The notes under the pieces are model-generated. The model was not told where the DNA came from and did not search any database. It worked only from the letters and a program-made list of their open reading frames with translations. Of a stretch of 44,852 nucleotides of DNA, positions 1-44,852 are shown in pieces. Source of the stretch: a phage; sequence record PZ239914.1; one strand, written 5' to 3'. Made by a program: the position numbers and the translations under genes. Every line of letters begins with the position of its first letter. The first letter of the stretch is position 1.

Positions 1-98
1 GTGTGCCGCCAGCGCACTCCAGGGCACTACGGCAACCGCATAAGCAACCTTTACCTGGTAGACGTTGCACGCGACCCGAACTTTTATGCGTAAATTGG

Positions 99-127
99 TT
101 GCATAATCATATTGGTTGCATTATATT
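99..127 (+). promoter_or_regulatory. candidate sigma70-type promoter (TTGCAT-17-TATATT) with two TTGGTTGCA motifs
   Basis: -35 TTGCAT at 99-104, 17-nt spacer, -10 TATATT at 122-127; ATTGGTTGCA copies at 94-103 and 111-120; precedes the ORF at 175. Confidence 0.45.
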
Positions 128-174
128 GAGGGTGTCCGGTTTGGACGCCCTTTTTAATACCTGGAGACGACACA

Positions 175-417
175 ATGAGATCATTATTTTTCGACTACGA
201 CGGCGACCTTCGATTTTGGGTGATACTCCTCCTCATGTTTTCCGTTTGTATTTGCGTACCTACCGCGGCTATTTACTACACGGAACGCTACGAATGCAAG
301 ACCGTATATGCCGAGCAAACGGGACGTAATACCCAATGGCGATACGGAGTCTGCTGGGTGGAGATGGACGGCAAATTTATTCCACGCAAAGAGATTCGCA
401 CTACGGAGATTAAATAA
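175..417 (+). CDS. hypothetical small membrane protein (80 aa)
   Basis: ATG ORF with GGAGA about 8 nt upstream; hydrophobic segment WVILLLMFSVCICVPTAAIYY. Confidence 0.5.
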   Translation: MRSLFFDYDGDLRFWVILLLMFSVCICVPTAAIYYTERYECKTVYAEQTGRNTQWRYGVCWVEMDGKFIPRKEIRTTEIK

Positions 418-876
418 ATGAAAATTTTACAAGAAGAGAAAAATTACTGGGCCGCGCAATGCCTCGAAGCCCGCGAACAGGTCGAACGTGTTAGCGCGCT
501 GGCAGACACCTACCTTGCGAGCTATGAAGGCGAGGAGAAGGCGCGCAAGGAATTAGAGGAGCGCTTCGATCTGCTGTATGAGTTGATGGGTATTATGCAG
601 CGCACCGGATACACCACCACCGTCGCGCTAAACCGCATCACTGCCGAAGGTCTGCGCGAGCATTGCAAACGTGCCGAGGAGTACGTGCGCCCCAAAGGTC
701 GCCAGTCTAAGATCGACCGGAAAGACCTGGTGCTTATGGCGTGGCGCGCAAACGGTAGCTACTACTCCGATTGCCGACCGCTTAGCGTCGAGGGCGCAAA
801 GCGCCTGCAACGCGTTCTAAACAGTGGTAAGAAAATTGCCCTGTACGCGATAGATCAAGATCATGCAGAAGAGTGA
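418..876 (+). CDS. hypothetical protein (152 aa)
   Basis: ATG immediately after the upstream stop with GGAG upstream; charged coiled-coil-like N-terminus; no recognised motif. Confidence 0.55.
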   Translation: MKILQEEKNYWAAQCLEAREQVERVSALADTYLASYEGEEKARKELEERFDLLYELMGIMQRTGYTTTVALNRITAEGLREHCKRAEEYVRPKGRQSKIDRKDLVLMAWRANGSYYSDCRPLSVEGAKRLQRVLNSGKKIALYAIDQDHAEE

Positions 877-1348
877 GCAGAAAGATAGCTGGCGCACACC
901 GCCAGCTTTATTTAAACCGCTGCGCCGTAAGTTCCGATTCCGTTACGATATGGCGGCAAGCGACGCCAATCATCTGCTACCGCGTTACTTCACGGCAGAG
1001 CACAGCGCGCTTGATGTGGACTGGGCAGAGTTGAAAGGGTGGAAATGGTGCAATCCGCCGTATTCCGATCCGCTGCCGTGGGTGGAATGCGCAGCGCACG
1101 GACGACGGACTGTCATGCTGCTGAATCAGGACACGTCGACGAAGTGGGCGAAGTTGGCCCGGAAGACTGCAAACCAGATAATTCTTCTGGACTGGCGGAT
1201 TAGATTCATTCACGCCGTCACCGGCGAAGTCGGTCCGAGCAATAACAAGTGCCAGCAATTGATAATCTTTGACGAAGCGCCGCCAACCGGCAGCGCAAAA
1301 ATTGAAATAATGAGCGAAGGAGAACTCCTTGAATATCTTAATCGTTGA
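863..1348 (+). CDS. DNA N6-adenine methyltransferase (phage Dam family)
   Basis: WRTPPALF, FRYDMAASD and the catalytic NPPY motif (WCNPPYSD) in the order typical of phage Dam-family MTases. Confidence 0.8.
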   Translation: MQKSEQKDSWRTPPALFKPLRRKFRFRYDMAASDANHLLPRYFTAEHSALDVDWAELKGWKWCNPPYSDPLPWVECAAHGRRTVMLLNQDTSTKWAKLARKTANQIILLDWRIRFIHAVTGEVGPSNNKCQQLIIFDEAPPTGSAKIEIMSEGELLEYLNR

Positions 1349-1373
1349 CCGCGACCCCGCGGTCGTAGACCAA

Positions 1374-1553
1374 ATGCAAAGAGACTACTGTATTGATCCG
1401 CGACGCAATCGTGTAGTGCGCGCGTCTCGCCCTGAATACATCCTGGGCCTTGACCTCACCGGTTGGCTTGTCATGACTCAGCGTTGCCATTTCGTGTGCA
1501 ACTCCTTTACTGCGCGAAGCGCCCGTTACACCCTTATTGAGAGTTTAAAATGA
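1374..1553 (+). CDS. hypothetical small protein (59 aa), doubtful
   Basis: ORF track 1329..1553 starts at TTG; first ATG at 1374; weak RBS; fills a 200-bp gap between the Dam and HAD genes. Confidence 0.25.
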   Translation: MQRDYCIDPRRNRVVRASRPEYILGLDLTGWLVMTQRCHFVCNSFTARSARYTLIESLK

Positions 1554-2020
1554 AATTACTGATTTGCGATTTGGATGGCGTTATTAACGGCTCAAGTGAT
1601 GCGCGCGCCGACCTGGTGCCGGGTATAAAAACCAAATCCACCTTTTGGGCAAAGTGGCACAAAGCGCACGTACGCGAAGACCTGAACATGGATATGCTGC
1701 CGCTGCTGCGTATGTATGAAGAGCAAGGCTTCAAGATTGCGTATCTGACAAACCGGCAGCGCGAATGTTGGGAAACCACCGCCGAGCAACTGGAAGTATT
1801 CCCGAACGGCCGGTTGTTCATGCGCCATATGCAGGACGACACCCCGCCGCCCGAGTTTAAGGCGTGCGCCGTGTTCAAAATGGTCTGCTATGCGGACGTG
1901 TCCGAACTGGTCATCATTGAAGACTGTCCGAAGAACATAGCGGCAATTCGTCGGGCGTGTAGCGATTTGGTCCCGAAAATTTACGCAATAAATGTTGCGA
2001 AATTTACTTGCAACCAATAG
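1550..2020 (+). CDS. HAD-superfamily hydrolase/phosphatase-like protein
   Basis: N-terminal LICDLDGVI matches HAD motif I (DxDG); GAGAG RBS upstream. Confidence 0.55.
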   Translation: MKLLICDLDGVINGSSDARADLVPGIKTKSTFWAKWHKAHVREDLNMDMLPLLRMYEEQGFKIAYLTNRQRECWETTAEQLEVFPNGRLFMRHMQDDTPPPEFKACAVFKMVCYADVSELVIIEDCPKNIAAIRRACSDLVPKIYAINVAKFTCNQ

Positions 2021-2037
2021 GTTGGTTGCACTATAGT
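2008..2037 (+). promoter_or_regulatory. candidate sigma70-type promoter (TTGCAA-18-TATAGT) overlapping an inverted TTGCAACCAA/TTGGTTGCA pair
   Basis: -35 TTGCAA 2008-2013, -10 TATAGT 2032-2037; inverted 9-mers at 2008-2017 and 2022-2030. Confidence 0.4.
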
Positions 2038-2082
2038 TAACGCGTCGGGGCAATACGGCCCCACGCTAAAAAGGACCACATA

Positions 2083-2637
2083 ATGAAAGCATACGAATAC
2101 TGCAAAAACGCCGCCACCACTATGGAACAGCGCGGGAAAGAAAACGGCTATGACAACGCGAAAGAAGAACGCAGCGCTAAACAAATCGCTGCCGTGTTTA
2201 ACGCGCTTACCGGTCGCGACCTTACCGAGCAGGAAGCCTGGACCTTCCTGATCTGCCTGAAGCTGGTACGCCAGCACCGCAAGCACCAGGAAGACAATAT
2301 TGTTGACCTGGTAGCATATGCCGCACTGCTGGGCGAGTCTCACATGACCGTGCATGACGAGATTCAGATCGATACAACGGCAGAACAGTTTGAAAGTCTC
2401 AAAGGCCTGTCCGTGCGTCTCGACGGTGAGATTAATGCGTATAACAGCGCAATTCGCGTTGCGGAGGACACGATAGCCTCGTTCGGCAAGACTGTTAAGG
2501 CCCGCGATTTTGGGTGTGTAGCCCAGGACGTCCAGCCTATGGTCGTGCTCACCGGTGAAGACGGATCGAAAATCTGCATGACGCAGGAAGATTTCCGCAA
2601 CATGGAAAAAACACTGGTGACTGGCGCACTTAAATAA
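2083..2637 (+). CDS. hypothetical protein (184 aa)
   Basis: ATG with AAAGGA RBS; preceded by a GC hairpin and AGGACCACA leader; no recognised catalytic motif. Confidence 0.6.
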   Translation: MKAYEYCKNAATTMEQRGKENGYDNAKEERSAKQIAAVFNALTGRDLTEQEAWTFLICLKLVRQHRKHQEDNIVDLVAYAALLGESHMTVHDEIQIDTTAEQFESLKGLSVRLDGEINAYNSAIRVAEDTIASFGKTVKARDFGCVAQDVQPMVVLTGEDGSKICMTQEDFRNMEKTLVTGALK

Positions 2638-2679
2638 TTCTAATCGCGGGCTTCGGCCCGCATCAATGAGGACCACACG

Positions 2680-3249
2680 ATGTACGGCGAATATGAAATA
2701 TCTGGTAAACAATTCCACCTGGCGGCAATGATAGCAAGCATCGAGTTTGACCAGTGGCGCTTAAAGTCCGACGCGTGCAAGCAAAGCCGTCTTGTTGGTG
2801 TGCTGGGCGAGATGTTTGCAGGCATGTATCTCGAAGGGCAAGCAGGAGGGCGCAGTTGTATACCGCAAGGCTTGCTTATGCGTACGGGCCTGTTTAGCGC
2901 CAATACCATTGACCGCGGCGATATCATCATGGTCGGCAAGCGCAAGGTAAAGTCCGGCCCCGACTTCCGCGAGCATGTGATCGATGCCGTATGGACCTAC
3001 GAAGTTAAGGCCACCAGCGGCATCCGTCGCGGACTGGTAGAGGCGCGTTGCGCTCGCGAGTATCTTGCCCGTCGAGTTGCAGGTGTTATCCTGGTAAGCG
3101 TAGCGTTCGGGCAGCATAACGCGCACGGCGTGATTGAGGATATCGCAGAGCCATACGTGATTGTTAATGACTGGCCCTTAGTGGAAGTGGATGGAAAGGA
3201 GTATTACGAAAGCCCGCTGGTGCGTCGCAAGATAGAAAACGGGGCATAA
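2680..3249 (+). CDS. hypothetical protein (189 aa)
   Basis: ATG with GAGGA RBS; preceded by the GCGGGC-UUCG-GCCCGC hairpin and AGGACCACA leader. Confidence 0.6.
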   Translation: MYGEYEISGKQFHLAAMIASIEFDQWRLKSDACKQSRLVGVLGEMFAGMYLEGQAGGRSCIPQGLLMRTGLFSANTIDRGDIIMVGKRKVKSGPDFREHVIDAVWTYEVKATSGIRRGLVEARCAREYLARRVAGVILVSVAFGQHNAHGVIEDIAEPYVIVNDWPLVEVDGKEYYESPLVRRKIENGA

Positions 3250-3266
3250 AGCCCCGTTGTTTTTAC
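3238..3266. terminator. bidirectional intrinsic terminator at the convergent junction
   Basis: AACGGGGC-ataaa-GCCCCGTT stem-loop followed by a T-run on plus; lies between the plus gene ending at 3249 and the minus tail fiber ending at 3284. Confidence 0.6.
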
Positions 3267-23734: not shown

Positions 23735-25238
23735 TGTCCGCTACCTTGTCCGGGTCTTCTTCGGTAGATTCTACCGCATCAGGGGACATTTGAGGCAATG
23801 GATTCTGATTTCGCAATTCGTCTTCCACCTGCTCGACGGTTTGCGAGTCGTCGATGACGCCCTGCGCCATCATCCACTTGATGAAGTCAGCCAGGCGGAC
23901 CGTGCCGGTCTGCACCCCCGACATCATCGCGGTCATAAGCTGCGCATCAACCGTGATTTCGGTGTAGAACTTGTTCAGCGTTACGCGCTGGTCGGCGGTG
24001 TCGCCCGTGAATAGCTGGACGATTTGCAGCGCACGGTTGAAAGCCTTCTCAACGTTACCGGCAATAAGCGACAGAATACTGTTATCAGTCTGCGCATCGT
24101 AGGCCGCCTCGGTTGCCGTCTTAGGTGCGGTCCCCTTCTCGACCAGGGCCGCGCCCAGTTTAGCCATTTGCAATTCGCGACGCTCACACAGTGCAACCGA
24201 CAAGTTGCGCTCCTCCGCCTGGATCAGTTTGGCGTCCATGTTCTGGCCCAGGATAACGCCCTTAGTCGCTCCGAGCGCGATGCCGCCTTTCAGGTTTTTG
24301 TCCGCCCATGATTGAGTCAAGCCAGTTGCCACCAGGGTAGGTTGGCCCACGATGTGCGCAATCTCGGCGACGTCCGCTTCGGCGTTGTAGTGCTTAATGT
24401 TGATGGATGCGATATCAGCCAGCGGGGCGGCGTCAGGCGTCGCGTTGTTATCCACCGCCCCACACCAGCAAAACGGAAGTTGAGTCAGTGCATTACCGGA
24501 GGCATCCACCAGCGGAACAAGGTCGGTGCGGGTGAATCCACGCGGCAAGTCCATTTGCACCTCGGACGTGTCGGCGTTGTAGTACCAGCGGCGGGCGTGT
24601 GCTGCACCGTTAATCATGCGAAGCTCGGTCCAGATTGTTACTTCGTGGTTTGCGAAGTCGTCCGGGTCTTCGGTGCTGATTTCATCCGTCTCCTTCAGCA
24701 CAATTAGCGTATCGACGCCGTGGGTCTGCCGCCAGTTGATGATCTGTTCTGCCGTATACAGGCGGATAAGCGGGCGGTGTGACGCCATCTCGGCGGCTGT
24801 CTGCGGAACTACGTTACCCAGTTCATCAAAATGCGCCTGGCGATCGTAGTCCACCATAAAGCCCGCACGGCCTGATTGCAGCACTTCCGACATAGCACCG
24901 CGAAGGAGTTGCGGCAGCGGCATGCCGCTGCCGTCTACGTCGTCAATCAGGTCAGCCATCGCCCCGGAAAGGTCAAGGCTTACCGGTTTAGCAAAGGCAA
25001 CGCCTAACAGTGCGTTAAGTGTGCGGGCGGTGGCGTTCAGGAATACAGCGCGTTGCTTGTACGCCTTATACCGCGCCCGTGCTTTCGGGTCAGTATTGTC
25101 GCCACTGGCAGGATGCGGCAGGTACAAGGGGCCGCACGCCTTAACGGCGCGCTCCCCTGCTACACAGTCACGGATCATTTTCCACTCTGGCGCGATTCGC
25201 GCATAGAGTGGGTGCTGGTTGTCAACGTTAACGGTCAT
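23718..25238 (-). CDS. portal protein
   Basis: 506 aa directly downstream of the large terminase; acidic C-terminus. Confidence 0.8.
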   Translation of the reverse strand: MTVNVDNQHPLYARIAPEWKMIRDCVAGERAVKACGPLYLPHPASGDNTDPKARARYKAYKQRAVFLNATARTLNALLGVAFAKPVSLDLSGAMADLIDDVDGSGMPLPQLLRGAMSEVLQSGRAGFMVDYDRQAHFDELGNVVPQTAAEMASHRPLIRLYTAEQIINWRQTHGVDTLIVLKETDEISTEDPDDFANHEVTIWTELRMINGAAHARRWYYNADTSEVQMDLPRGFTRTDLVPLVDASGNALTQLPFCWCGAVDNNATPDAAPLADIASINIKHYNAEADVAEIAHIVGQPTLVATGLTQSWADKNLKGGIALGATKGVILGQNMDAKLIQAEERNLSVALCERRELQMAKLGAALVEKGTAPKTATEAAYDAQTDNSILSLIAGNVEKAFNRALQIVQLFTGDTADQRVTLNKFYTEITVDAQLMTAMMSGVQTGTVRLADFIKWMMAQGVIDDSQTVEQVEDELRNQNPLPQMSPDAVESTEEDPDKVADNGEDN

Positions 25239-25248
25239 GGTCGTTTCC

Positions 25249-26634
25249 TTAGTAGAAGTCTACAGTTGGAACAACGGCGATTGGGCGAATCACTGGGAAC
25301 AGGTGCGCAATTGGATAGCCCGCGGCATCGTTCATGTGGTCCACACCGGCGGTTTTATCCGGCTCGCCTTTCTTCAGGTCGTAAACCTGCTGTTCCAGAC
25401 ATTTCGCTAGTGTAGGGCATTTATCCAGGTTGACAAAATACTGGCGCACACCCTTCGAGTTGCACATCATCGTATTCATCGCGATCAATCGGTCTTTCAC
25501 AGGAGGGTTAACGCTGTCGTACTCCACCTCGAAGCCCGCGTCTTCCAGTTGCGCGATATCGGACGACGACGCGTTGACCGTCTTGCGGGATTTGCCACTG
25601 CTATCCGGGTAAACGACGACCCTACCGGCGGCACAATGTTCCGGGTAGCGCTCTTCGATCGCCTCAATCATAGCCGGGGTGTCAAACAGGTCCACAAATT
25701 CATCCACCGCGTGAATCTCGTCTCGGAACTCCTTGTTCTCGGTTACTCGCTGCCGTCTGACGTACACAACCGCCGCCATCTTCGTGACGTTAAAGTCCAT
25801 ACCGATAATCAGCGTGTCTTCCGGCTGCACTTCTTCGGTGCTGGCGTTCTCCTCACGGTTGAACATCTTGTATACTGCGCCCGACGTAAGGTTAACAAAC
25901 ATGCCGTTAAGGTACGCATCAATCAGGTTAGCCGGGTACTGGCTGCGCAGCGTGTCGATGAAGTCTGCCGGTAGGTGGTGGTTGTCGGTGGTCTTCGCCC
26001 GGATCAAACGTTTTTGGCTATCCTTCTCCACTTCGAAAATTTGGTACATCGCCCGGAAGCCTTCAGGCGTGGACACGATGACGAACTGGCGTACAAAGCC
26101 CGCACGCAGACGACCGAGCAATTTGTGATATGCCGCCATTGCGACGTCTTGTTTCGTGGTATCGAACTCGTCGGCGACAATCCACGCGGCGTTGACCCCG
26201 ATTAGGCGGGTATAGTTCTCCATTGATTCACAGATAACGCGGGTCCATTTGCCTTTCACAAGCACGTTATAGATCTTGTCCTGCTTATTGAACTTCCACC
26301 GGAAGCCCGCCTCGTCAAACGCCTTTTCCAATTCCGGATACATGATTTTAACCAGGAGTGGGATGGTCGGCTCGGTCACGATGCCGTCATGGCCCGGGTT
26401 CAGGGTTAAAAGCTGGATGACCTTACGCGCTGCGACCCACGACTTTCCACCACCGAAGCCGGAACACAGGCCGAGGATTTTAGTCTTTGTGTCGCGCAGT
26501 AGTTCGACCTGGTGCGGTAGGCAATCAGGCTGGTAAAGACGCACCGCCTGCGCAACGCGTGTCGGGCGTGGTGGTCGGTTGCGCTTTGCGATCGCGCGTT
26601 CCAGTGCGCGGTGTTCTGCCGCATAGTTACGCAT
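25249..26634 (-). CDS. terminase large subunit
   Basis: P-loop LGLCSGFGGGKSWVAARK, acidic Walker-B-like ADEFD, C-terminal nuclease-like region. Confidence 0.9.
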   Translation of the reverse strand: MRNYAAEHRALERAIAKRNRPPRPTRVAQAVRLYQPDCLPHQVELLRDTKTKILGLCSGFGGGKSWVAARKVIQLLTLNPGHDGIVTEPTIPLLVKIMYPELEKAFDEAGFRWKFNKQDKIYNVLVKGKWTRVICESMENYTRLIGVNAAWIVADEFDTTKQDVAMAAYHKLLGRLRAGFVRQFVIVSTPEGFRAMYQIFEVEKDSQKRLIRAKTTDNHHLPADFIDTLRSQYPANLIDAYLNGMFVNLTSGAVYKMFNREENASTEEVQPEDTLIIGMDFNVTKMAAVVYVRRQRVTENKEFRDEIHAVDEFVDLFDTPAMIEAIEERYPEHCAAGRVVVYPDSSGKSRKTVNASSSDIAQLEDAGFEVEYDSVNPPVKDRLIAMNTMMCNSKGVRQYFVNLDKCPTLAKCLEQQVYDLKKGEPDKTAGVDHMNDAAGYPIAHLFPVIRPIAVVPTVDFY

Positions 26635-27185
26635 TATTCGCCCTGGCCTTTGCCGGTAGGTTCCACAACGACGTCGCCGTTATCATCTTCGTCGTCATCC
26701 AGCGGCACATCGTCCCGGACGCCGTGGTTGGCTTTAAGCAGGAACGTAGCGAAGCCTGCCGCGATGGTCACGCCGCCAGCTTCCATCAGGAAAGTTTTCT
26801 GCAACTCCATAGCGTCCGCCATCGCCTCGGCGAACTCCTCATGCGCACGCGCCCAGCGATACAGGCAAGCTACGCCCACGCCGATTTCCGCGGCAAATCG
26901 ACCGAAGGTTGGCATTTTGTTGCGGGGGATTACTTGCGCAGCGCCTTTATCGGAGTAGTTTACCTGCCAGGCGTCGGCATCGGCAAAATAGCGGCGAAGC
27001 TGGTCGCAGTAAACGGATCGGTAGTCAGTAGGGCGTCCACATTTGCCGCCTTTACGGCGCTTTCCGTACTCGATTTCAGGTCCGAGATTGGTATGCTCGG
27101 TTTGCTCGCCTGGTTTACGGCGCGGGGTAACTGCCACTCGTCCGTCCAGTTTAGCGCGACGGCCCTTAACTTTGATTTCTGCCAT
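26634..27185 (-). CDS. terminase small subunit (alternative start at 27206)
   Basis: HTH-like PTFGRFAAEIGVGVACLYRWARA; acidic C-terminal tail; stop overlaps the TerL start. Confidence 0.6.
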   Translation of the reverse strand: MAEIKVKGRRAKLDGRVAVTPRRKPGEQTEHTNLGPEIEYGKRRKGGKCGRPTDYRSVYCDQLRRYFADADAWQVNYSDKGAAQVIPRNKMPTFGRFAAEIGVGVACLYRWARAHEEFAEAMADAMELQKTFLMEAGGVTIAAGFATFLLKANHGVRDDVPLDDDEDDNGDVVVEPTGKGQGE

Positions 27186-27248
27186 GATATAAGCCCTTTT
27201 GTGCATATGCGCCGACCATCGGCAACATAAGAGACGGCCCTGCCATCT

Positions 27249-27263
27249 AAGGGGATTATAACA
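27249..27263 (-). promoter_or_regulatory. candidate extended -10 promoter (TGtTATAAT) upstream of the terminase genes
   Basis: Minus strand TGTTATAAT immediately downstream of the terminator at 27268-27292. Confidence 0.35.
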
Positions 27264-27267
27264 GGCA

Positions 27268-27292
27268 CAAAAAAGCCCACCAAATCGGCGGG
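27268..27292 (-). terminator. intrinsic terminator upstream of the packaging genes
   Basis: Minus strand GCCCGCC-gauuu-GGUGGGC followed by U6. Confidence 0.5.
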
Positions 27293-27301
27293 CTAGGAGG
27301 G

Positions 27302-27514
27302 TTAAACGTGGCGACCGTAGTATCGGGTTAACATGCTTTCTACTTCGCTTATAGCGCCTTCTGTGTAGCGTATTTGCGATAGTATCTCGATCCGCTCGCT
27401 GATAGACATGCCTATTGCCGCTGCCGTTCGTTCGAATCGGCGCAAGCCTTCGAGTTGTTTGCGTAATTCCTTCAGGCGGTCCGCCTGCGTGCTCATGAAT
27501 ACTTGTCTAATCAT
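27302..27514 (-). CDS. hypothetical protein (70 aa)
   Basis: ORF-track ORF; stop overlaps the upstream gene. Confidence 0.4.
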   Translation of the reverse strand: MIRQVFMSTQADRLKELRKQLEGLRRFERTAAAIGMSISERIEILSQIRYTEGAISEVESMLTRYYGRHV

Positions 27515-28653
27515 CTCAGCATTTCCGGGCTAATGGTTAAGCGCGCTACTTCGCCGTAGTTGGCGCTATAGGTGATTACGTTGGCACTACGACCTGACAT
27601 CCAACCGCCTCGGCTGGCATATGCGTCTTTTGCGGCGAGCGTCCGGTGTTGTTCAACAATCATGTTGCGGGATTCTACAATCTTCTGGTGGTGCAAGTGG
27701 CCTACATGCGCGTAGCTATACTCGCTGGATCCGAACGCTTGTCTGAATTTTGAAATCATGACGGTTTCAATAGCGTCAAAACGTGCCTTATGCCCGTGGT
27801 GGAAGAATAGCGTGGTCTTGCCGTGTTGCACCATTTTGTATACGTCCGGGGACGTATCCACATCGACACGCGGCTCGTTCTCGTACAGGGTATTGAACAT
27901 TTCAGCCAGCCAAATCATGCCAGACTCGTCATGATTCCCCTGGACTATTAGCAGTTTGACTTTGTGGTGTTTTTGCAGCGCCAGTTCCACCACGTTGCGC
28001 ACCATGCGAATCATGTAGCGGACCAGTTTCTGGTAGCGGGTATCCGCGTCCAGTACGTGCCCGCTGGCAGGAGTGACGGCATCGAGGCTATCAAAGTGCG
28101 CCATATCACCGAGGATATTGATTACGGCAGTGCCTGCGTCTGGTGCGCGTGCGAAGGCTTCGACAAACCAGCGATAGAACAGGTCTTCGGCAATCGCCAT
28201 ATCCCAATCCTCGCCAGTCTCCTCACCCCATGCCAGCATGCCCAGGTGGAAGTCGGACACGGTGTACAGGTTGAGTAGGTCAAGTGCCTGGATCGGGACT
28301 GGTGGGGCGCTTACTGGTGCTGCCGGTTTGATTTCGCTGTTCATACCCTCGACAACGGCGCTCATTGCTTCAAGCTGGCGCTCCTTGTCCTGCTCAGTGA
28401 TAACCCACGACATGACCTCTTCGCCATTTCCGCGCACCAGGGCGGATACGCGTTTAACACCGAAGCCATCGGCAACGCGCTTACGAATTACGGCATCATT
28501 ACCGTGACCAATACCTTTCTTCGACAGGCGGGCTTTGCGCATGTAGACATTTCGAAGAGCAATTCCGTACTTCTTCGCAATATCTTTCGCGGTAGTGCCG
28601 GATTGCAACTCGGCGATCAATTGCTCGTCGGTGATTTTAGTTTGCGGGTGCAT
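27511..28653 (-). CDS. HTH domain fused to calcineurin-like metallophosphoesterase
   Basis: Phosphoesterase motifs in order: DFHLG, GDMAHFD, GNHDE, HHGH, GHLHH; N-terminal HTH-like TAKDIAKKYGIALRNVYMRKARL. Confidence 0.7.
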   Translation of the reverse strand: MHPQTKITDEQLIAELQSGTTAKDIAKKYGIALRNVYMRKARLSKKGIGHGNDAVIRKRVADGFGVKRVSALVRGNGEEVMSWVITEQDKERQLEAMSAVVEGMNSEIKPAAPVSAPPVPIQALDLLNLYTVSDFHLGMLAWGEETGEDWDMAIAEDLFYRWFVEAFARAPDAGTAVINILGDMAHFDSLDAVTPASGHVLDADTRYQKLVRYMIRMVRNVVELALQKHHKVKLLIVQGNHDESGMIWLAEMFNTLYENEPRVDVDTSPDVYKMVQHGKTTLFFHHGHKARFDAIETVMISKFRQAFGSSEYSYAHVGHLHHQKIVESRNMIVEQHRTLAAKDAYASRGGWMSGRSANVITYSANYGEVARLTISPEMLR

Positions 28654-28670
28654 ATTAATTCACTTCCAGA

Positions 28671-28796
28671 TTATGGGACCGAGGACAATATACCACGGTC
28701 CCTATTGCGGCGGGTTATAGCAATTCGCAAATAACCATACCGATAAATGCTGCGGTGGACCAGATTGCCAATACCCAAATATCATTACGTGCCATA
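28671..28796 (-). CDS. possible small membrane protein (41 aa)
   Basis: ATG at 28796 with GAGGAG 9 nt upstream; MARNDIWVLAIWSTAAFIGYGYL hydrophobic helix then a basic tail; below the ORF-track cutoff. Confidence 0.3.
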
Positions 28797-28859
28797 GTGT
28801 AATACTCCTCTCGTTGATTGGTCGCAGTATGGCGTCTATGTTGGTTGCAAGTCAAGCAA

Positions 28860-28896
28860 TAAAAAGCCCGGAATTAACCGGGCTTGTTGTTTTATT
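28860..28896. terminator. bidirectional terminator after the Ig-like gene
   Basis: AAGCCCGG-aattaa-CCGGGCTT flanked by A5 and a T-rich run. Confidence 0.55.
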
Positions 28897-29314
28897 CTTC
28901 GGCTCCCGTTACGGTGAAGATGGCGGAAGCCAGCACCCCGCTACCGTCGGAGGCCACCCAAAAAATGTGGGCGCTTCCCGCCTGTGCTGCTGTGATTTCG
29001 CCGGTAGTCTGGTCGATTGTCGCACAGTTCGGGTTCGACGACACCCACTTCCCTGCCTTGTTAGTTGCGTCGGATGGCTGTACCTCAACCGAAGCGGTGG
29101 CCTTCGCACCAACTGCGGCGGATTCCGGTGTGATTGTTACGGTGGCACTTGTCACCGGCTTACTTTCCGGCGCGGGCGGCGGGCTGGGCAACTTCGCGTC
29201 GAATACCCCCGCATGGCTTATCGTACCCGCTACAATAGCGCGTGCGCCTGGGTCTTCGGTTTTAGCCAGCGCGGCGAGCGCGTCCGCATTATGATCAAGA
29301 ATACTTTTCAACAT
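28892..29314 (-). CDS. bacterial Ig-like (Big_2-type) domain protein
   Basis: 140 aa from the ATG at 29314 (GAGGGGG RBS); Ig-like pattern GATIDQTTGEITAAQAGSAHIFWVASDGSGVLASAIFTVT. Confidence 0.55.
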   Translation of the reverse strand: MLKSILDHNADALAALAKTEDPGARAIVAGTISHAGVFDAKLPSPPPAPESKPVTSATVTITPESAAVGAKATASVEVQPSDATNKAGKWVSSNPNCATIDQTTGEITAAQAGSAHIFWVASDGSGVLASAIFTVTGAEE

Positions 29315-29330
29315 ATCGTGCCCCCTCGTA

Positions 29331-29822
29331 TTACGCCGCGTTACGCCCGATTCGCTCGGCAACGTCCCACTGCTTACCATCAAATAACGCCTGTCTGCCG
29401 ATTGCACGGCGCACCAGACCCTTAAGCACTTCCCCTCCTTGCTTGCGGAACAGCGGCAGCGTAGCCCGTACCTTCGCCCAGTCACCCAGGCGGATCGCAT
29501 CGTCAAAATCACCCGCGACGTCGTCCGGCATGATCGGACCTGGACCAGCATTGATAACCAGGTCCACCAGCGCGTCGAATTGCGCCTGATTGATGCTCGG
29601 GTGTGCGTACTTGTTCACCCAGTTTTCGGCATACGCCACATCGCGCTTGAGTAGCTCCAGCGCTTCCGCGCGGGTAATGCTTCGAGGCGGATTAGTTCCA
29701 GTATGACCATAGCCCCAGGTATACAGGCCGCGGGCCTGCTCTTTCTTGGTCGCGAAATACGGCACTGGGCTGAAAGCCTCCCATGCTGCCGTAAATCTTA
29801 GACCGTTGTCACTGAATCGCAT
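29331..29822 (-). CDS. endolysin (phage lysozyme, GH24, P22 gp19-like)
   Basis: N-terminal FSDNGLRFTAAWEAF...GLYTWGYGHTG matches the E...GxxTxGxGHTG lysozyme signature. Confidence 0.8.
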   Translation of the reverse strand: MRFSDNGLRFTAAWEAFSPVPYFATKKEQARGLYTWGYGHTGTNPPRSITRAEALELLKRDVAYAENWVNKYAHPSINQAQFDALVDLVINAGPGPIMPDDVAGDFDDAIRLGDWAKVRATLPLFRKQGGEVLKGLVRRAIGRQALFDGKQWDVAERIGRNAA

Positions 29823-30054
29823 GTTTTACCCCATTCAAAACAGCATTACGCAGTGTGCGCAATGCAAACAGCCATATTAACGCGGTCCAGGTGGTATCAG
29901 ATACGTCTCCGGTTTGCAACAATCCGATAAAACAGACCATTGCCGTTAACAGATACAGCACCCGACCGAAAAAGCCATCCCGGACTGACGGCGCATACAC
30001 GTTAAACAGGGACGAAGCCCCGATGATAACAAACAACAGGACGGAGATAATCAT
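29809..30054 (-). CDS. holin/antiholin-like membrane protein (81 aa)
   Basis: Two to three predicted TM segments; immediately upstream of the endolysin. Confidence 0.5.
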   Translation of the reverse strand: MIISVLLFVIIGASSLFNVYAPSVRDGFFGRVLYLLTAMVCFIGLLQTGDVSDTTWTALIWLFALRTLRNAVLNGVKHAIQ

Positions 30055-30341
30055 TTTGCACCCCCCGGAAGTCGGAACGACGCAATAGTCTCCCTGATCC
30101 GGTCGGCGATTGGCATCCAGAAGATCGCGGTTACGAAGCCTAAACCGGCGACAGTGCGCTCACCCGACAAACCAGCCCACTCAGCGATAGCCGGTGCGCC
30201 AAATATGGCACACAGGAAGCCAACTACAACATACAAAACGAAGTTTAGCGGCCCCTTCGTAGCCTCACCATGAATGCGTGCGCCTACGAAGCCACCCGCC
30301 AGACATGCCAGGGCGAATAGCCACTCGTTTAGCTTATCCAT
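30051..30341 (-). CDS. putative holin (96 aa)
   Basis: Three hydrophobic segments and a charged C-terminus; first gene of the lysis cassette. Confidence 0.5.
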   Translation of the reverse strand: MDKLNEWLFALACLAGGFVGARIHGEATKGPLNFVLYVVVGFLCAIFGAPAIAEWAGLSGERTVAGLGFVTAIFWMPIADRIRETIASFRLPGGAK

Positions 30342-35441: not shown

Positions 35442-35471
35442 TTGACACCCATCCTGCAACCAATCTATCAT
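35442..35471 (+). promoter_or_regulatory. candidate strong rightward promoter (TTGACA-18-TATCAT) with upstream T/A tract
   Basis: Perfect -35 TTGACA at 35442-35447, -10 TATCAT at 35466-35471, T9A4 tract at 35422-35434; TGCAACCAAT motif in the spacer. Confidence 0.5.
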
Positions 35472-39441: not shown

Positions 39442-41729
39442 AAGACTTCGAACGCCTGTTTCTCGACACAGAGACATTTAGCGATGTGGACCTGAAGAAA
39501 GTAGGCGCTTACGCCTACGCGGAGCACCCATCGACCGAGATTATGATTTGCACCTACGCCATCGACGAGGGCCGCGTGCAGACATGGGATTGCACCGAGT
39601 CCCCCACAATGCCGCGTGAACTGCGCAAGGCGCTCCGCCGGGTATCCCGCCAGAAAGCAAAAATCGTGATGGCTAACGGCCTCCTGTTTGACCGCCTGGT
39701 TATTCGCGAGAAGTGGGGTATTGACCTGCCGGTAAGCCAGATCGAAGACACCATGATTATGGCCTTTCGCCACGCGCTGCCCGGAAGCCTCGATATGCAG
39801 TGCCTGGTGCTGGGCGTTGACGCGGAGCACGCGAAGGATAAGACTGGCAAGGCGCTGATCAAACGGTTCTGTAAGCCTACCCCTAAGACCTACAAAATCC
39901 GCCGCTACACTCGCGAGACTCACCCAGAAGAGTGGGCCAAATTTCTGCGCTATGCCGCGCTGGATATTATCGCGATGCGTGAAGTCTACTGGCGCATACC
40001 GGACTGGGGTAATACCCCGAAAGAAGATGAAATCCTGCTCATCGACCAGTTGATTAACGACCGCGGCTTCTACGTAGACGTTGACCTGGCGAACGCCGCG
40101 ATCCGGGCGGTGCAGGCGCATAAGGAAGAACTGAAAGAAGAAGCCTGGGAGCGATTTGGCGGTAAGCTGACCGGCAATGACTTCCTGCCAATCCTGCGTG
40201 ATATCGCCCCGGCGTTCACGATCCACAACGCGCAGAAATCCACGCTTAACGACCTTCTTGAAGACCCTGACTTCCCCGACGAAGGCAAAGCGCTTATCGA
40301 AATGCGCCTCGGAGCGTCATCAACGGCATCGTCTAAGTACAATCCGCTCGTTAACGGCCTATCCGCCGATGGACGCCGCCGTGGGTGTATTCAGTATGGT
40401 GGCGCAAAGCGCACGCTGCGCTGGGCCGGTAAAGGCTTCCAGCCGCAAAACCTGGCACGTGGCGAGTACAGCGACGACCACGAAGGGAAGATTAAACGCC
40501 GCGAGGGTGAAAGCGACGTCTCGTTTTGGGTCCGGTCGCACATGCTCACCAACGGCATCAACTCCCTGTTACGCGGGACCGCACACTGGGCGTACGATAT
40601 ATCGAAGCTGACCGCCTCGACCGTTCGCGGGTGCATTATTCCGGCGAAGGGCAAGAAGTTTGTCGTAGCGGACTACGCCAACGTGGAAGGGCGTGGACTT
40701 GCCTGGATCGCTGGCGAGAAAACAGCGTTAATGGTCTTTAAGGCCGGTCGCGATATCTATTGCGAGACTGCCGGTAAGATGTTCGGCCTGGACCCGGACT
40801 ACATTAAAGCCAACCGCAAGGACTTACGCCAGATCGGTAAGGCGTGCGAATTGGGACTGGGCTATGGTGGCGGCGTGGCAGCGTTCTTGCAGTTCGCTAA
40901 AAACCTGGGCCTCGACCTTTACACTATGGCGGACGTGATGAAAGGCACGTTCCCGGATCACATTTGGGCGGCGGCGAAACGTGGTTATGAGTACGCCCGC
41001 ATTAACGAAGCGAAGCGCCCGCCGAAGCTTGGTAAGAAAGACGAGCGCCCAACCTACATACTGCCTAAAAACGTTTGGCTGACGTGCGACGCGATCAAAC
41101 GCATGTGGCGTGAGGCTCACCCGAAGACGGTCGCCTTTTGGGCCGAGCTTGAGGACGCGGTGTTGTGTGCAATCCGCAATCCGGGCAAAGCATACTGGGC
41201 TGGCGCTAACGTTCGCCCGGACGGCAGGAAAGCGCTTAAGATTGTGCGCACGAAGGCGAAGCACGACCCAACCTTCGACGAGGAGCGCGACGACCCGAAC
41301 GCCGCGGGGTGGTGGTTGAAAATTGAGTTGCCGTCGGGGCGCATCATGAGCTACCCCGGCATCGCGTTGTCTGTCACGACCGAGATCGACGAAGACACCG
41401 GCAAGAAGCGCACCAGCACCCGCATTAAATATCAGGGCGAGAATCAGACGACGCGCCAGTGGGGCTTCCAGTATACCTACGGCGGCAAACTGACGGAGAA
41501 CATCGTACAGGCGTTGTGCCGCGATATTCTCGCATGGTCCATGCCTGGCGTTGAGGCCGCGGGGTATGAAATCGTCCTGTCGGTGCACGATGAATTGATC
41601 ACCGAAGTGCCGGATACTGACGACTACACGACCGAGGAGCTATGCGCGCTGATGTGCGACCTGCCTGTTTGGGCGAAAGGGTTCCCACTCGCCGCAGAAG
41701 GCGACATTATGTACAGGTACAGGAAGTAA
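39438..41729 (+). CDS. family A DNA polymerase with N-terminal 3'-5' exonuclease domain
   Basis: Exo I-like LFLDTETFS; motif A-like VADYANVEGRG; motif B-like RQIGKACELGLGYGGG; motif C-like SVHDEL. Confidence 0.9.
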   Translation: MKDFERLFLDTETFSDVDLKKVGAYAYAEHPSTEIMICTYAIDEGRVQTWDCTESPTMPRELRKALRRVSRQKAKIVMANGLLFDRLVIREKWGIDLPVSQIEDTMIMAFRHALPGSLDMQCLVLGVDAEHAKDKTGKALIKRFCKPTPKTYKIRRYTRETHPEEWAKFLRYAALDIIAMREVYWRIPDWGNTPKEDEILLIDQLINDRGFYVDVDLANAAIRAVQAHKEELKEEAWERFGGKLTGNDFLPILRDIAPAFTIHNAQKSTLNDLLEDPDFPDEGKALIEMRLGASSTASSKYNPLVNGLSADGRRRGCIQYGGAKRTLRWAGKGFQPQNLARGEYSDDHEGKIKRREGESDVSFWVRSHMLTNGINSLLRGTAHWAYDISKLTASTVRGCIIPAKGKKFVVADYANVEGRGLAWIAGEKTALMVFKAGRDIYCETAGKMFGLDPDYIKANRKDLRQIGKACELGLGYGGGVAAFLQFAKNLGLDLYTMADVMKGTFPDHIWAAAKRGYEYARINEAKRPPKLGKKDERPTYILPKNVWLTCDAIKRMWREAHPKTVAFWAELEDAVLCAIRNPGKAYWAGANVRPDGRKALKIVRTKAKHDPTFDEERDDPNAAGWWLKIELPSGRIMSYPGIALSVTTEIDEDTGKKRTSTRIKYQGENQTTRQWGFQYTYGGKLTENIVQALCRDILAWSMPGVEAAGYEIVLSVHDELITEVPDTDDYTTEELCALMCDLPVWAKGFPLAAEGDIMYRYRK

Positions 41730-41733
41730 GATT

Positions 41734-42012
41734 ATGACACCAGAAGGCAAGGTGCAGCGTCACCTGATGAAACGGGTGAAAGAGGTCGGCGGATTCTGCC
41801 GAAAACTGGCATGGGAGGGGCGCGCGGGTGCGCCCGACCTGATTATTATCATCAACGGCAAAATAGTGTTCGTCGAAGTGAAGCGCCACGGAGGAAAACC
41901 GAAGCCGCACCAGGTACGTGAACATGAGCGAATGGTCCGCCGCGGTGCTGACGTTCGCGTCATCGACAACATAGCCGACTGCGATTTATTGGTTGCTGAA
42001 TTGGTCGCGTAG
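41734..42012 (+). CDS. VRR-NUC domain nuclease
   Basis: 92 aa; GAPDLIIIINGKIVFVEVKRHGGKPKPHQ pattern typical of VRR-NUC. Confidence 0.75.
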   Translation: MTPEGKVQRHLMKRVKEVGGFCRKLAWEGRAGAPDLIIIINGKIVFVEVKRHGGKPKPHQVREHERMVRRGADVRVIDNIADCDLLVAELVA

Positions 42013-42052
42013 CGGTATAGTGTGCAGGTTGGCACTATCGAGGATTTTAGAA

Positions 42053-42226
42053 ATGATTGAAGAAAAACGTTGTAGTAATTGCGGCTGCGTCAAGCCGCTG
42101 TCCCAGTTCCACAAATACACCGGTAAGACTGCGCGAAGTCCAGACGGTCATCGGGCCGAGTGCAAGTCGTGCCGCAATAAGAAAGAGCGCGAACGGCAGC
42201 GCCGCTATCGCGCAGAACAAGAATAA
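42053..42226 (+). CDS. zinc-ribbon protein (57 aa)
   Basis: CSNCGC...CKSC Cys pairs with a basic C-terminus; GAGGA RBS. Confidence 0.5.
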   Translation: MIEEKRCSNCGCVKPLSQFHKYTGKTARSPDGHRAECKSCRNKKERERQRRYRAEQE

Positions 42227-42233
42227 TCAATAC

Positions 42234-42256
42234 GGCGGGCCTGTCCCGCCATTTTT
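42234..42256 (+). terminator. intrinsic terminator
   Basis: GGCGGG-cctgt-CCCGCC followed by ATTTTT. Confidence 0.5.
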
Positions 42257-42264
42257 AGCGAGAC

Positions 42265-42489
42265 ATGACGATGAAAGAACATTACCGACTCACCAAGCTG
42301 GGAGAATGCAAACCAGGCGATCGCGTATGGTTTATCGCGGGCATGAACTACCCGCTGCCGTTGACGGTGTGCTGGCAGAAGTTTAATAGCTTCCGGGCTA
42401 CCGGTGTCCACATCGGACACGCCACCAACTACGACGCCACAAAGAGGAACTGGGATAGTGAAACCGAAGTCTGGAAAAAGGCGGAATAA
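42265..42489 (+). CDS. hypothetical protein (74 aa)
   Basis: ORF-track ORF; alternative ATG at 42271. Confidence 0.45.
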   Translation: MTMKEHYRLTKLGECKPGDRVWFIAGMNYPLPLTVCWQKFNSFRATGVHIGHATNYDATKRNWDSETEVWKKAE

Positions 42490-42493
42490 AGAA

Positions 42494-43918
42494 ATGGCAC
42501 GATTCCGACGCCGCGAATATCAGAAGTTGATTACCGCGTTCATCCTCAAGCATAAGCGATGTAATATCTGGGCGACAATGGGTTCCGGTAAAACCGGCGC
42601 GACAATGTGGGCGCTGAATAAAATGTTCCAGACGGGCATCCTATCCCACCAGGCGGACCGCGTACTGGTGCTGGCCCCGCTGCGCGTTGCATCCGGCACC
42701 TGGCCCCCGGAGCAAGAAAAATGGCGGTTCTCCTCCTTGCTGGTAGTAGACGGCACCGGGCCAGAGAAAGACCGCATAGCCGCGCTGGAGAGCGACGCTA
42801 ACGTGGTTTGTGTTAACTATGATGTGGTTGAGTGGCTGGTTGACTATTACGGCGATGCGTGGCCATTTACGGTCGTTGTTGCCGATGAATCCACTAAGCT
42901 GAAAGGCTACCGAAGCAAGCAAGGCAGTAAGCGCGCACGCGCACTGGCCGCGATTGCACATAAACACGTCAAGCGCTGGATTAACCTGACCGGCACACCC
43001 GCGCCAAATGGCTTGAAAGACTTATGGGGTCAGACGTGGTTTGTCGACGGCGGCGAACGCCTCGGCAGTAGCTATAAGGCATTTACCGATCGCTGGTTCA
43101 TTAGCAAGCCTGTTAAGCCTGGCAGCTTCTCTATGCAGCACGCCCCGCTAAAGAACTCCGAGAAAGAGATACAACAACGTCTGTCTGACGTGTCCCTAAC
43201 CGTTGACGCGGCTGAATACTTCGGATGTGACAAGCCAATCTATACGCCGGTTGTTGTGGACCTGCCGAAGAAAGCCCGCAAGATTTACGACCAGTTTGAA
43301 AGTGAGCTATTTGCCGAACTGGAAAGCGGAACAGTGGAGGCGGCGAACGCCGCGGCGAAGACAATTAAGTGCCTTCAGCTAGCTTCCGGCGCTGTGTATA
43401 AGGTAGACGAAGACGGGGAACGGACAGACGAGTGGGTGAAGATTCACGACGCTAAGCTGGACGCGCTGGAAAGTATCGTGGAGGAGTTGAACGGTGCACC
43501 GTTGCTCGTTGCGTACCAATACAAACATGACCTGGCTCGTCTTAAGAAGAAATTTCCACACGGCGTTGCGTTGGGTAAAGGTAAGCAGGGCAATAAGGAT
43601 ATAGAAGCGTGGAACAGAGGCGAGATCCCCATCATGTTTGCACACCCGGCATCGGCAGGCCACGGCCTTAACTTGCAGGACGGAGGACATCACCTGGCAA
43701 TCTTCTCCGATACCTGGAACTTTGAGCACTTTTCGCAGATCGTTGAACGTATCGGGCCGGTTCGCCAGATGCAAGCAGGACACCCCCGTCCGGTATTCGT
43801 CTACATTATCCAGGCGCGCGGGACTTTGGACGAATTGGTTGCCGAGCGCCGCGACAGTAAGCGAGATATCCAGGACGACTTGATGGAATACATGAAAGCT
43901 AAAAAGGCGCGCAAATGA
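42494..43918 (+). CDS. SNF2-family helicase/ATPase
   Basis: Walker A GSGKTG; DExx box VVADEST; C-terminal helicase-like region; start reassigned to the ATG at 42494. Confidence 0.85.
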   Translation: MARFRRREYQKLITAFILKHKRCNIWATMGSGKTGATMWALNKMFQTGILSHQADRVLVLAPLRVASGTWPPEQEKWRFSSLLVVDGTGPEKDRIAALESDANVVCVNYDVVEWLVDYYGDAWPFTVVVADESTKLKGYRSKQGSKRARALAAIAHKHVKRWINLTGTPAPNGLKDLWGQTWFVDGGERLGSSYKAFTDRWFISKPVKPGSFSMQHAPLKNSEKEIQQRLSDVSLTVDAAEYFGCDKPIYTPVVVDLPKKARKIYDQFESELFAELESGTVEAANAAAKTIKCLQLASGAVYKVDEDGERTDEWVKIHDAKLDALESIVEELNGAPLLVAYQYKHDLARLKKKFPHGVALGKGKQGNKDIEAWNRGEIPIMFAHPASAGHGLNLQDGGHHLAIFSDTWNFEHFSQIVERIGPVRQMQAGHPRPVFVYIIQARGTLDELVAERRDSKRDIQDDLMEYMKAKKARK

Positions 43919-44625
43919 CTATTGCTAAAATGACAATCTGGTCACTGTTTGACGGCAGCGGCTTGATGATTGAGCGTGCTGCCGAGATGGGGCATAAGTG
44001 TTACTGCTTCAACTACTCCGAAGCCGATCATGGGTCTTACCTTGACTACCGTATTTATGGTCGCGGAATCCGTTATCGCAATGAGTTTATCGATCTGGAC
44101 TTTGTGGACCGCGCGATGAATGGAGATTTCGGTACGCCAGATATCATCTATGCGTTCCCGCCGTGTACGGATCTGGCGGTGAGCGGTGCGCCAGCTTTCC
44201 CGCGCAAGCGTGCAAAAGACCCAGCCTTTCAGCTTAAGGCGGTGCGCACCGCGAAGATCGCCGCTTACCTGGGTGACTTCTTCGAAGTGCCATATATGAT
44301 TGAGAATCCGCGCAGTGTGCTTTCCACCCAGTGGCGCAAGCCGGATCACTCGTTCGACCCGTGGGAGTATGGGGGCTATCTGCCGGTGGATGACGTACAC
44401 CCGCTCTTCCCGGAATACATCAACGCCCGCGATTCATATCCGAAGCTGACCTGCTTATGGACCGGCAACGGCTTCCGTATGCCAGAGAAGAGACCTGTTT
44501 TCGTTGAAAAAGGGTACTCGAAGCAGTATAGTCGCCTCGGAGGCAAATCAGCCCGCACAAAATTAATCCGGTCGCTCACTCCGCGCGGCTTCGCGATAGC
44601 GGTTAACGAGGAAAATTTAAGATGA
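43915..44625 (+). CDS. putative DNA methyltransferase with C5-cytosine-MTase-like motif order
   Basis: LFDGSGL (motif I-like), FPPCTDLAVSG (PC motif IV-like), MIENPRSV (motif VI-like); motifs are divergent. Confidence 0.45.
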   Translation: MTIAKMTIWSLFDGSGLMIERAAEMGHKCYCFNYSEADHGSYLDYRIYGRGIRYRNEFIDLDFVDRAMNGDFGTPDIIYAFPPCTDLAVSGAPAFPRKRAKDPAFQLKAVRTAKIAAYLGDFFEVPYMIENPRSVLSTQWRKPDHSFDPWEYGGYLPVDDVHPLFPEYINARDSYPKLTCLWTGNGFRMPEKRPVFVEKGYSKQYSRLGGKSARTKLIRSLTPRGFAIAVNEENLR

Positions 44626-44852
44626 ATACGACATTCGAAGCCATCGACTTTTCGGTCGCAATGACTAACCAGCTATTCACCTACGACAGCAAAACCGGAG
44701 TCATCCGTCTGAAGTCCACTGGCCGCAAGATTGGCAACATCAACACTGCCGATGGCGGAACACGTATCGAATGCAACGGCAAGACGCTATCGGGCGCACG
44801 CGTGGCGTGGATTATTGCGACGGGCAATACAATCCCTCCGGGATTCGCCGTT
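44622..44852 (+). CDS. HNH endonuclease-like protein, 5' partial (runs off the window)
   Basis: N-terminal pattern LFTYDSKTGVIRLKSTGRKIGNI...GARVAWIIATG typical of phage HNH homing endonucleases; GAGGA RBS. Confidence 0.5.
   Translation, partial: MNTTFEAIDFSVAMTNQLFTYDSKTGVIRLKSTGRKIGNINTADGGTRIECNGKTLSGARVAWIIATGNTIPPGFAV

Follow-up and report, generated by a model that had tools for sequence, protein, structure and literature searches.

Paired genes for a Dam-family adenine methyltransferase and a compact DNMT3-like cytosine methyltransferase in the replication block of a Dhillonvirus

The phage sequence record PZ239914.1, considered here over its full length of 44,852 nucleotides (the window), carries genes for two DNA methyltransferases of different classes, a Dam-family enzyme predicted to act on adenine N6 and a compact enzyme predicted to act on cytosine C5 (Table 1). 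We find that the pair is real, that the enzyme classes proposed for it in the initial annotation of this DNA are right, and that the pair, present in all sequenced relatives, was already known from annotation and in part from published experiments. About 150-160 Dhillonvirus records carry both genes, including phage Oekolampad (Bas18) of the BASEL collection, in which bas18_0032 ('Dam-like N6-adenine methyltransferase') and bas18_0036 ('Dcm-like C5 cytosine methyltransferase') are the counterparts of the window pair. Nothing of substance differs between the window and Oekolampad, the former being another isolate with its sequence start placed inside an HNH-like gene. Equivalent names for the pair are found in many further Dhillonvirus and Drexlerviridae records, and descriptive papers on Dhillonvirus mention the pair as well; in this genus, and likewise in many Drexlerviridae, a Dam-like plus a Dcm-like gene is a core feature that annotation already records.

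Table 1. Positions of the two methyltransferase genes, their motifs and accompanying features in the window
Feature	Position	Strand	Basis or remark
Dam-family N6-adenine DNA methyltransferase, 161 aa	863..1348	+	PF05869
NPPY catalytic motif (motif IV), aa 64-67	1052..1063	+	read from translation
Compact C5-cytosine DNA methyltransferase, 236 aa	43915..44625	+	PHROG 757, motifs, fold, homologues
Motif I FDGSG, S-adenosylmethionine binding, aa 12-16	43948..43962	+	aligns to motif I of M.HaeIII and CmoX
Motif IV PPC, catalytic Cys84, aa 82-84	44158..44166	+	C84 invariant
Motif VI ENP (equivalent to ENV), Glu130, aa 130-132	44302..44310	+	E130 invariant
C-terminal IRSLTPRG, resembles motif IX or X	44566..44589	+	invariant in 34 homologues, nearly so in 74
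SNF2-family helicase	42404..43918	+	PF00176 E 1.1e-10; phrog_62 E 8e-158
HNH-like ('homing endonuclease') gene, 107 aa, 5' part	44622..44852	+	open reading frame crosses window junction
HNH-like gene, 3' part	1..93	+	same open reading frame
Two small genes, 80 aa and 152 aa, between HNH-like gene and dam	175..876	+	phrog_18961; phrog_10530
Sigma-70-like site, strong	35442-35471		flanks plus-strand block; 11/12 positions, consensus match only
Bidirectional terminator-like hairpin	3238-3258		flanks plus-strand block; consensus match only

The adenine enzyme had been recognised from an NPPY motif in the open reading frame (ORF) at 863-1348, and its assignment to the Dam family holds. The protein matches PF05869 over profile positions 5-146 of 169 (E 3.1e-36, 125 bits with a gathering score of 28.1) as well as phrog_111 (E 3.8e-56), and within the alignment of its relatives P66 and Y67 of the catalytic motif are invariant, while N64 and P65 are conserved in at least 90% of sequences. 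It is 98% identical to the 'Dam-like N6-adenine methyltransferase' of GeorgBuechner, another Dhillonvirus, and 30-37% identical to the annotated Dam proteins of phages 933W, KarlJaspers and AAS23. Its nearest relatives are limited to Dhillonvirus-like contigs (16 matches in a word-indexed search, all with PF05869), whereas more distant homologues are carried by about 1,700 phage records in a tblastn search, among them the dam gene of the Stx phage 933W. With the 933W-type Dam the window protein shares the Pfam family, the NPPY motif and small size at 37% identity; unlike this and other PF05869 phage Dam proteins, the Dhillonvirus enzyme forms a narrow sequence subgroup. By analogy with the family annotation and with related phage Dam enzymes, GATC is its most likely target. 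A GC-rich inverted repeat of 8 bp, bearing T-rich tails on both strands, lies at 887-907, just within the dam ORF at its 5' end, where the upstream gene overlaps, and resembles a terminator by consensus match only.

For the second protein, encoded at 43915-44625, the initial annotation had tentatively read the motif order of a C5-cytosine methyltransferase, and this order is borne out by FDGSG at residues 12-16, PPC at 82-84 and ENP at 130-132. The ordered trio arose in 3 of 200,000 composition-preserving shuffles of the protein, and the motif order is therefore not due to chance. Across 34 homologues (57-82% identical), residues F12, G14, S15, G16, P82, P83, C84, E130, N131, P132, W140 and R141 are invariant, as is the C-terminal LGGK..TK.IRSLTPR motif; across 74 representatives at 33-54% identity, C84, E130 and P132 are still invariant, with N131 conserved in at least 90%. 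Of the residues invariant in the closer set, R141 is a candidate for the motif VIII arginine. Classification with hidden Markov models (HMMs) places the protein in PHROG 757, 'DNA methyltransferase' (E 1.2e-82, residues 2-234), and PF00145 is matched over motifs I-IV by 19 of the 34 close homologues, though not by the window protein itself (best E 1.3e-6, 28.5 bits with a cut-off of 22). When the family profile was compared with the PDB sequences, the best match was M.HaeIII, with motifs I and IV in exact register but at a non-significant E of 0.62. An AlphaFold2 model built from the alignment reached a mean predicted local distance difference test (pLDDT) score of 90.3 and a predicted template modelling (pTM) score of 0.89, and all 50 matches listed in a Foldseek search of the PDB were DNMT3-family catalytic domains (E down to 7e-7). 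Taken together, these lines of evidence exclude a protein other than a methyltransferase. The fold, the invariant catalytic residues C84 and E130, and the homology to experimentally tested phage enzymes collectively make the C5-methyltransferase assignment firm; the class is well supported, and the site specificity is not.

This enzyme belongs to a large, tight family of compact proteins, which comprised 2,677 clusters at 90% identity in a word-indexed search and 1,958 representatives at 50% identity in an exhaustive HMMER search, and which is found in about 1,530 phage records from many genera; tblastn from another family member returned nothing further. Nearly all members have 210-260 amino acids, and the short length is thus a trait of the family and not a truncation. 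The window protein, 99% identical to that of Oekolampad, differs in this respect from DNMT3A and DNMT3B, M.HhaI and M.HaeIII, which have 270-330 amino acids or more and share 13-15% identity with it. Unlike these enzymes, it has no target-recognition domain of normal size, and unlike canonical PF00145 enzymes it has no recognisable motif X beyond 'RSLTPRG', with no stretch after the C-terminal IRSLTPRG to supply a separate one. Escherichia coli Dcm (CCWGG, 472 amino acids) is of the same enzyme class, and action at a CCTGG site is reported for homologues of the phage enzyme, but the phage enzyme is half its size, and the vsr gene that partners dcm in MG1655 (dcm-vsr) is not annotated in the Oekolampad relative. 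As a profile comparison with E. coli Dcm aligns motif IV only, 'Dcm-like' is a label for the window enzyme and implies no orthology. The ORF contains two in-frame ATG codons, M1 at 43915 and M6 at 43930, the second of which gives a protein of 231 amino acids. Most homologues likewise have 231 residues and begin 1-4 residues before IWSLFDGSG, which suggests that the real start may be 43930 instead of the ATGA-overlapped 43915.

The genomic setting departs from the initial description, which had placed the two genes in different arms. Megablast searches with both window ends against GenBank phages returned about 160 records at 88-94% identity, nearly all from Escherichia or Shigella Dhillonvirus, the best being Sponge, Zumzum, KS_S9 and the BASEL phages Oekolampad and PaulFeyerabend; Sponge and Oekolampad are about 94% identical to the window over the two end regions compared. 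In Oekolampad, window positions 1-3236 correspond to 23790-26989 and positions 41700-44852 to 26990-30243, both on the minus strand and with abutting coordinates. Together with the one ORF that crosses the junction, these abutting ends indicate that the window holds the complete genome of a Dhillonvirus, an HK578-like siphovirus of the coliphages, in circularly permuted form, its arbitrary start falling within the 107-amino-acid HNH-like gene. The separation of the two methyltransferase genes is an artefact of the window cut: once the ends are joined, they lie on the same strand about 1.09 kb apart. The gene order is SNF2 helicase, C5-methyltransferase, HNH-like gene, 80-amino-acid gene, 152-amino-acid gene, Dam, 74-amino-acid gene and HAD phosphatase, and Oekolampad shows the identical order from helicase through phosphatase. 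The stop codon of the helicase overlaps the start of the C5-methyltransferase as ATGA. On a simple gene map, these genes belong to a plus-strand block that runs from 35488 through 44852 and 1 to 3249 and holds replication and DNA metabolism functions, while a minus-strand block at 3284-35265 holds the virion structural, packaging and lysis genes along with further helicase and hypothetical genes.

Two phages with published work carry relatives of the cytosine enzyme. Phage K42 is a strain of KarlJaspers, 95% identical to the Bas06 genome, with a 711-bp 'Dcm' gene (bioRxiv 10.1101/2023.08.16.553469). K42 that loses Dcm escapes retron Ec86; expression of the gene raises 5-methylcytosine (5mC) in the multicopy single-stranded DNA (msDNA) of the retron, as measured by liquid chromatography coupled to mass spectrometry (LC-MS); a C82A/E128A/K175A/K176A quadruple mutant is inactive; and 34 of the 35 Ec86-sensitive phages in that study, including 'Siphoviridae', encode Dcm (bioRxiv 10.1101/2023.08.16.553469). 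The KarlJaspers protein, bas06_0055, has 236 amino acids and is 53% identical to the window enzyme over its full length (E 4e-85), sharing both its length and its compact DNMT3-like architecture. Residues C82, E128 and K175 of K42 Dcm correspond to C84, E130 and K177 in the window enzyme, whereas K176 is replaced by Leu178. KarlJaspers (Bas06, Drexlerviridae) belongs to a different family, and its dcm gene, unlike that of the window, has neither helicase nor HNH neighbours. By likeness to K42 Dcm, the Dhillonvirus C5-methyltransferase may be active and may trigger the retron.

The second relative is found in Pantoea phage vB_PagS_AAS23, whose gp34 is a Dam and whose gp52 is a cytosine methyltransferase; no conserved domain was revealed in gp52 by BLASTP, while its HHpred matches pointed to cytosine methyltransferases (PMC8004638). 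The virion DNA of AAS23 was reported to be Dam- and Dcm-methylated on the basis of restriction digestion with enzymes including MboI and EcoRII (PMC8004638). AAS23 gp52 is 52% identical to the window enzyme, and AAS23, like the window, pairs Dam with a compact C5-methyltransferase. Despite this parallel, gp34 has 246 amino acids and 30% identity to the 161-amino-acid window Dam, and the AAS23 genes lie on opposite strands about 7.5 kb apart, in contrast to the closely spaced, same-strand pair of the window. A literature search for nanopore and 5mC data found no Dhillonvirus methylome, and papers on retron Eco2 and on E. coli HS contained nothing on this methyltransferase pair. The DruSM1 knock-out library, considered as relevant through the Dhillonvirus Dru_SM5, was set aside, DruSM1 being a 60-kb Seuratvirus.

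The analysis establishes that both genes are present, to which families and fold their products belong, that the catalytic residues are conserved and how the genes are arranged; activity in this phage, the site specificities and the anti-restriction role are inferred. We consider it very likely that two orphan, S-adenosylmethionine (SAM)-dependent, site-specific methyltransferases in the rightward replication block methylate the phage DNA and protect particular sites, orphan here meaning that neither has a cognate nuclease. Dam would be a minimal enzyme that methylates adenine at N6 by means of its NPPY site. In the C5 enzyme, Cys84 would attack C6 of a flipped-out cytosine and Glu130 of the ENP motif would protonate N3, after which the methyl group would pass to C5; its site is probably CCWGG or a related sequence, close homologues having been reported to act at CCWGG, a specificity that was not rigorously mapped. 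Both enzymes would be co-expressed with the replication genes and would methylate newly made phage DNA, protecting it against enzymes that cut the unmethylated forms of these sites, such as those of the MboI/DpnII and EcoRII types. Such protection would depend neither on the presence of Dam and Dcm in the host nor on host enzymes keeping pace with phage replication. Orphan phage methyltransferases with GATC- or CCWGG-type specificities are classically protective. The arrangement would also have a documented cost, the cytosine methyltransferase of this family being the trigger sensed by retron Ec86 (Eco1), and through this trigger carriage of the gene affects host range on retron-bearing E. coli.

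A number of observations weigh against this interpretation, in whole or in part. On the adenine side, the Dam protein scored 87.8 bits against NCBIfam TIGR01712 (phage_N6A_met), below the equivalog cut-off of 97.05, and it is therefore a family relative and no certified equivalog; its AlphaFold2 model, built from a 12-sequence alignment, had a pLDDT of 62, falling below 50 at residues 28-71, which include NPPY, and a Foldseek search of the PDB with this poor model gave no match at E <= 0.001, so that no conclusion is based on it. On the cytosine side, the window protein has no match in Pfam (even at E <= 1), in NCBIfam or among PDB sequences. As this family escapes Pfam and NCBIfam, automated annotation often yields 'hypothetical protein', the name that the enzyme bears in many GenBank records. 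E. coli Dcm was rejected as an orthologue, hhalign aligning no more than 25 columns, those around motif IV, with a probability of 0.3% and an E of 0.18. The CCWGG specificity of the K42 study was taken from E. coli Dcm and backed solely by CCTGG mutants of the msDNA stem, and the assays were done in dcm+ MG1655 (bioRxiv 10.1101/2023.08.16.553469); for AAS23, a contribution of host Dam and Dcm to the methylation was not excluded (PMC8004638). Finally, the BASEL study found Dhillonvirus to be comparatively sensitive to restriction-modification of types II and III, and in the related Drexlerviridae methyltransferase genes showed no simple link to restriction resistance (PMC8594841).

The last of these points bears on the breadth of protection, as does the composition of the genome, which carries a strong signature of an alternative strategy, site avoidance. 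Genome-wide, 527 palindromes of 6 bp are observed where a maximal-order Markov model expects 777, and their mean z is -1.68 compared with 0.02 for non-palindromes (Mann-Whitney p 1e-11). Several are nearly absent (observed/expected: AAGCTT 1/15, GGCGCC 1/19, GGGCCC 0/13, GCCGGC 2/20 and CTGCAG 1/11). Neither GATC, with 159 sites and an observed/expected ratio of 0.78, nor CCWGG, with 159 sites and a ratio of about 1, is strongly avoided. We also considered such k-mer statistics as a readout of specificity and rejected them, since the GATC and CCWGG ratios fit protection, yet are not diagnostic. The restriction sensitivity described in the BASEL study (PMC8594841), together with the avoidance of 6-bp palindromes, argues that protection is not 'broad', as the initial annotation had suggested for self-methylation. 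What stands of its two-class interpretation is thus the presence of an adenine-N6 and a cytosine-C5 enzyme; the breadth, the separate arms and, as discussed below, a link to the HNH-like neighbour do not.

How closely the cytosine enzyme resembles Dcm in function is a separate matter. We regard it as a possibility of secondary weight that the compact 236-amino-acid family is no Dcm mimic, and that its members instead recognise a site that is different or shorter, act on the outer cytosine within CCWGG, or prefer hairpin or single-stranded DNA. This would fit an enzyme that has neither a target-recognition domain of normal size nor a separate motif X nor orthology to E. coli Dcm, and whose K42 homologue methylated msDNA that host Dcm left largely unmethylated. 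Indeed, dcm+ MG1655 with an empty vector had little 5mC in its msDNA, although the stem has CCTGG (bioRxiv 10.1101/2023.08.16.553469), so that either host Dcm misses this substrate or the phage specificity differs.

A related question is whether protection is what the two enzymes are for. They could be active with a main role outside anti-restriction, for example in holding newly replicated phage DNA in a fully methylated state that escapes MutHLS nicking or Vsr-type processing, in the timing of replication or packaging, or in host gene expression. The location of both genes within the replication module, where the start of the C5-methyltransferase overlaps the stop of the SNF2 helicase, is in line with such a role, as is the fact that the usual K-12 hosts already possess Dam and Dcm (dcm-vsr in MG1655). 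The restriction sensitivity of Dhillonvirus and the missing simple link between methyltransferases and resistance in Drexlerviridae, both from the BASEL study, point the same way; however, the panel in Fig 2B of that study may not cover cutters of GATC and CCWGG, and hence the relevant protection (PMC8594841). Given that there is no direct evidence for a non-restriction role in this phage group, and that protection is the classical function of orphan phage methyltransferases of these specificities, we consider this explanation unlikely. Far less probable still is that the C5-methyltransferase fold serves to transfer another group, such as a carboxymethyl group from carboxy-S-adenosylmethionine (Cx-SAM), in the manner of CmoX and as a handle for hypermodification. 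E. coli does make Cx-SAM, through CmoA, and the window enzyme combines PPC with an Arg224 that is invariant within the C-terminal motif, features reminiscent of the CmoX hallmarks, SPPC plus an Arg in place of HhaI Asn304. However, the window motif reads FPPC in place of SPPC, many ordinary C5-methyltransferases have PPC (GPPCQ in M.HaeIII, for instance), SpCmoX aligns at motifs I-IV only (E 2.6e-4), and equivalence of Arg224 could not be established. Moreover, the K42 enzyme, at 53% identity, yielded 5mC as judged by LC-MS (bioRxiv 10.1101/2023.08.16.553469), and neither cmoA nor an amide-ligase gene is present in the annotation of Oekolampad, about 94% identical to the window in two regions.

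The initial annotation had also pointed to an HNH endonuclease-like gene beside the cytosine enzyme and to a possible modification-dependent function of the latter. The neighbour is there, as a 107-amino-acid gene starting at 44622 and split by the window boundary, and one could imagine the two genes as a functional pair, whether as a nuclease unit that resembles restriction-modification or depends on modification, or as a mobile homing cassette. The stop of the methyltransferase overlaps the start of the HNH-like gene by 4 bases, as ATGA, and the HNH-like protein matches phrog_99, 'HNH endonuclease' (E 3.7e-16), and shares 95% identity along its full length with bas18_0035 of Oekolampad; the neighbour is annotated as 'putative homing endonuclease'. 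Nevertheless, the protein is merely 107 amino acids long and its match to Pfam HNH_3 is non-significant (E 0.11), and the methyltransferase occurs in its many phage genera independently of an HNH neighbour. No such neighbour accompanies the homologues of KarlJaspers and AAS23, and we accordingly see nothing to support a function that is coupled or depends on modification; adjacency to an HNH gene appears, from these genomes, to be specific to Dhillonvirus. We therefore give a functional HNH pair very little credence. Separately, inspection by eye of the HNH_3 motif shows that the expected first His is seemingly replaced ('VVCRQRTPGHYGNRISNL'), and on this ground the HNH-like protein may be catalytically degenerate. 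As for the notion that the second ORF encodes no methyltransferase and that its motifs are a chance resemblance, the failure of the window protein itself to match Pfam, NCBIfam or PDB sequences would favour it, but the rarity of the ordered trio among shuffles, the C5-methyltransferases returned by fold searches, the PF00145 matches of close homologues, the invariance of the catalytic residues and the activity of the K42 homologue effectively refute it. Methylation of phage DNA by an orphan Dam and an orphan C5 enzyme, with protection of particular sites, is thus the explanation that we favour.

Other genes of the plus-strand block also have labels or matches worth recording. The 152-amino-acid ORF at 418-876 (plus strand), which lies directly 5' of dam with a 14-nt overlap, matches phrog_10530, 'DNA ligase', at E 3.6e-93. 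A Pfam search of this ORF gave no domain and the protein is far too short for a ligase; the label is therefore probably a propagated misannotation. On the 3' side of dam and in the same block, the ORF at 1550-2020 (plus strand) encodes a HAD-type phosphatase whose group, phrog_415, is labelled 'polynucleotide kinase', and that at 2083-2637 (plus strand) encodes a DUF6378 protein, the related phrog_474 and phrog_1167 being labelled 'phosphofructokinase'. Upstream of the cytosine enzyme, between a VRR-NUC gene and the helicase, a 77-amino-acid ORF at 41993-42226 (plus strand) falls into phrog_5558, 'Lar-like restriction alleviation protein' (E 4.8e-18), with further matches to PHROGs for endonuclease VII and HNH and none to Pfam. 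If it is truly Lar-like, this small protein would represent a second, methylation-independent anti-restriction device within the same module.

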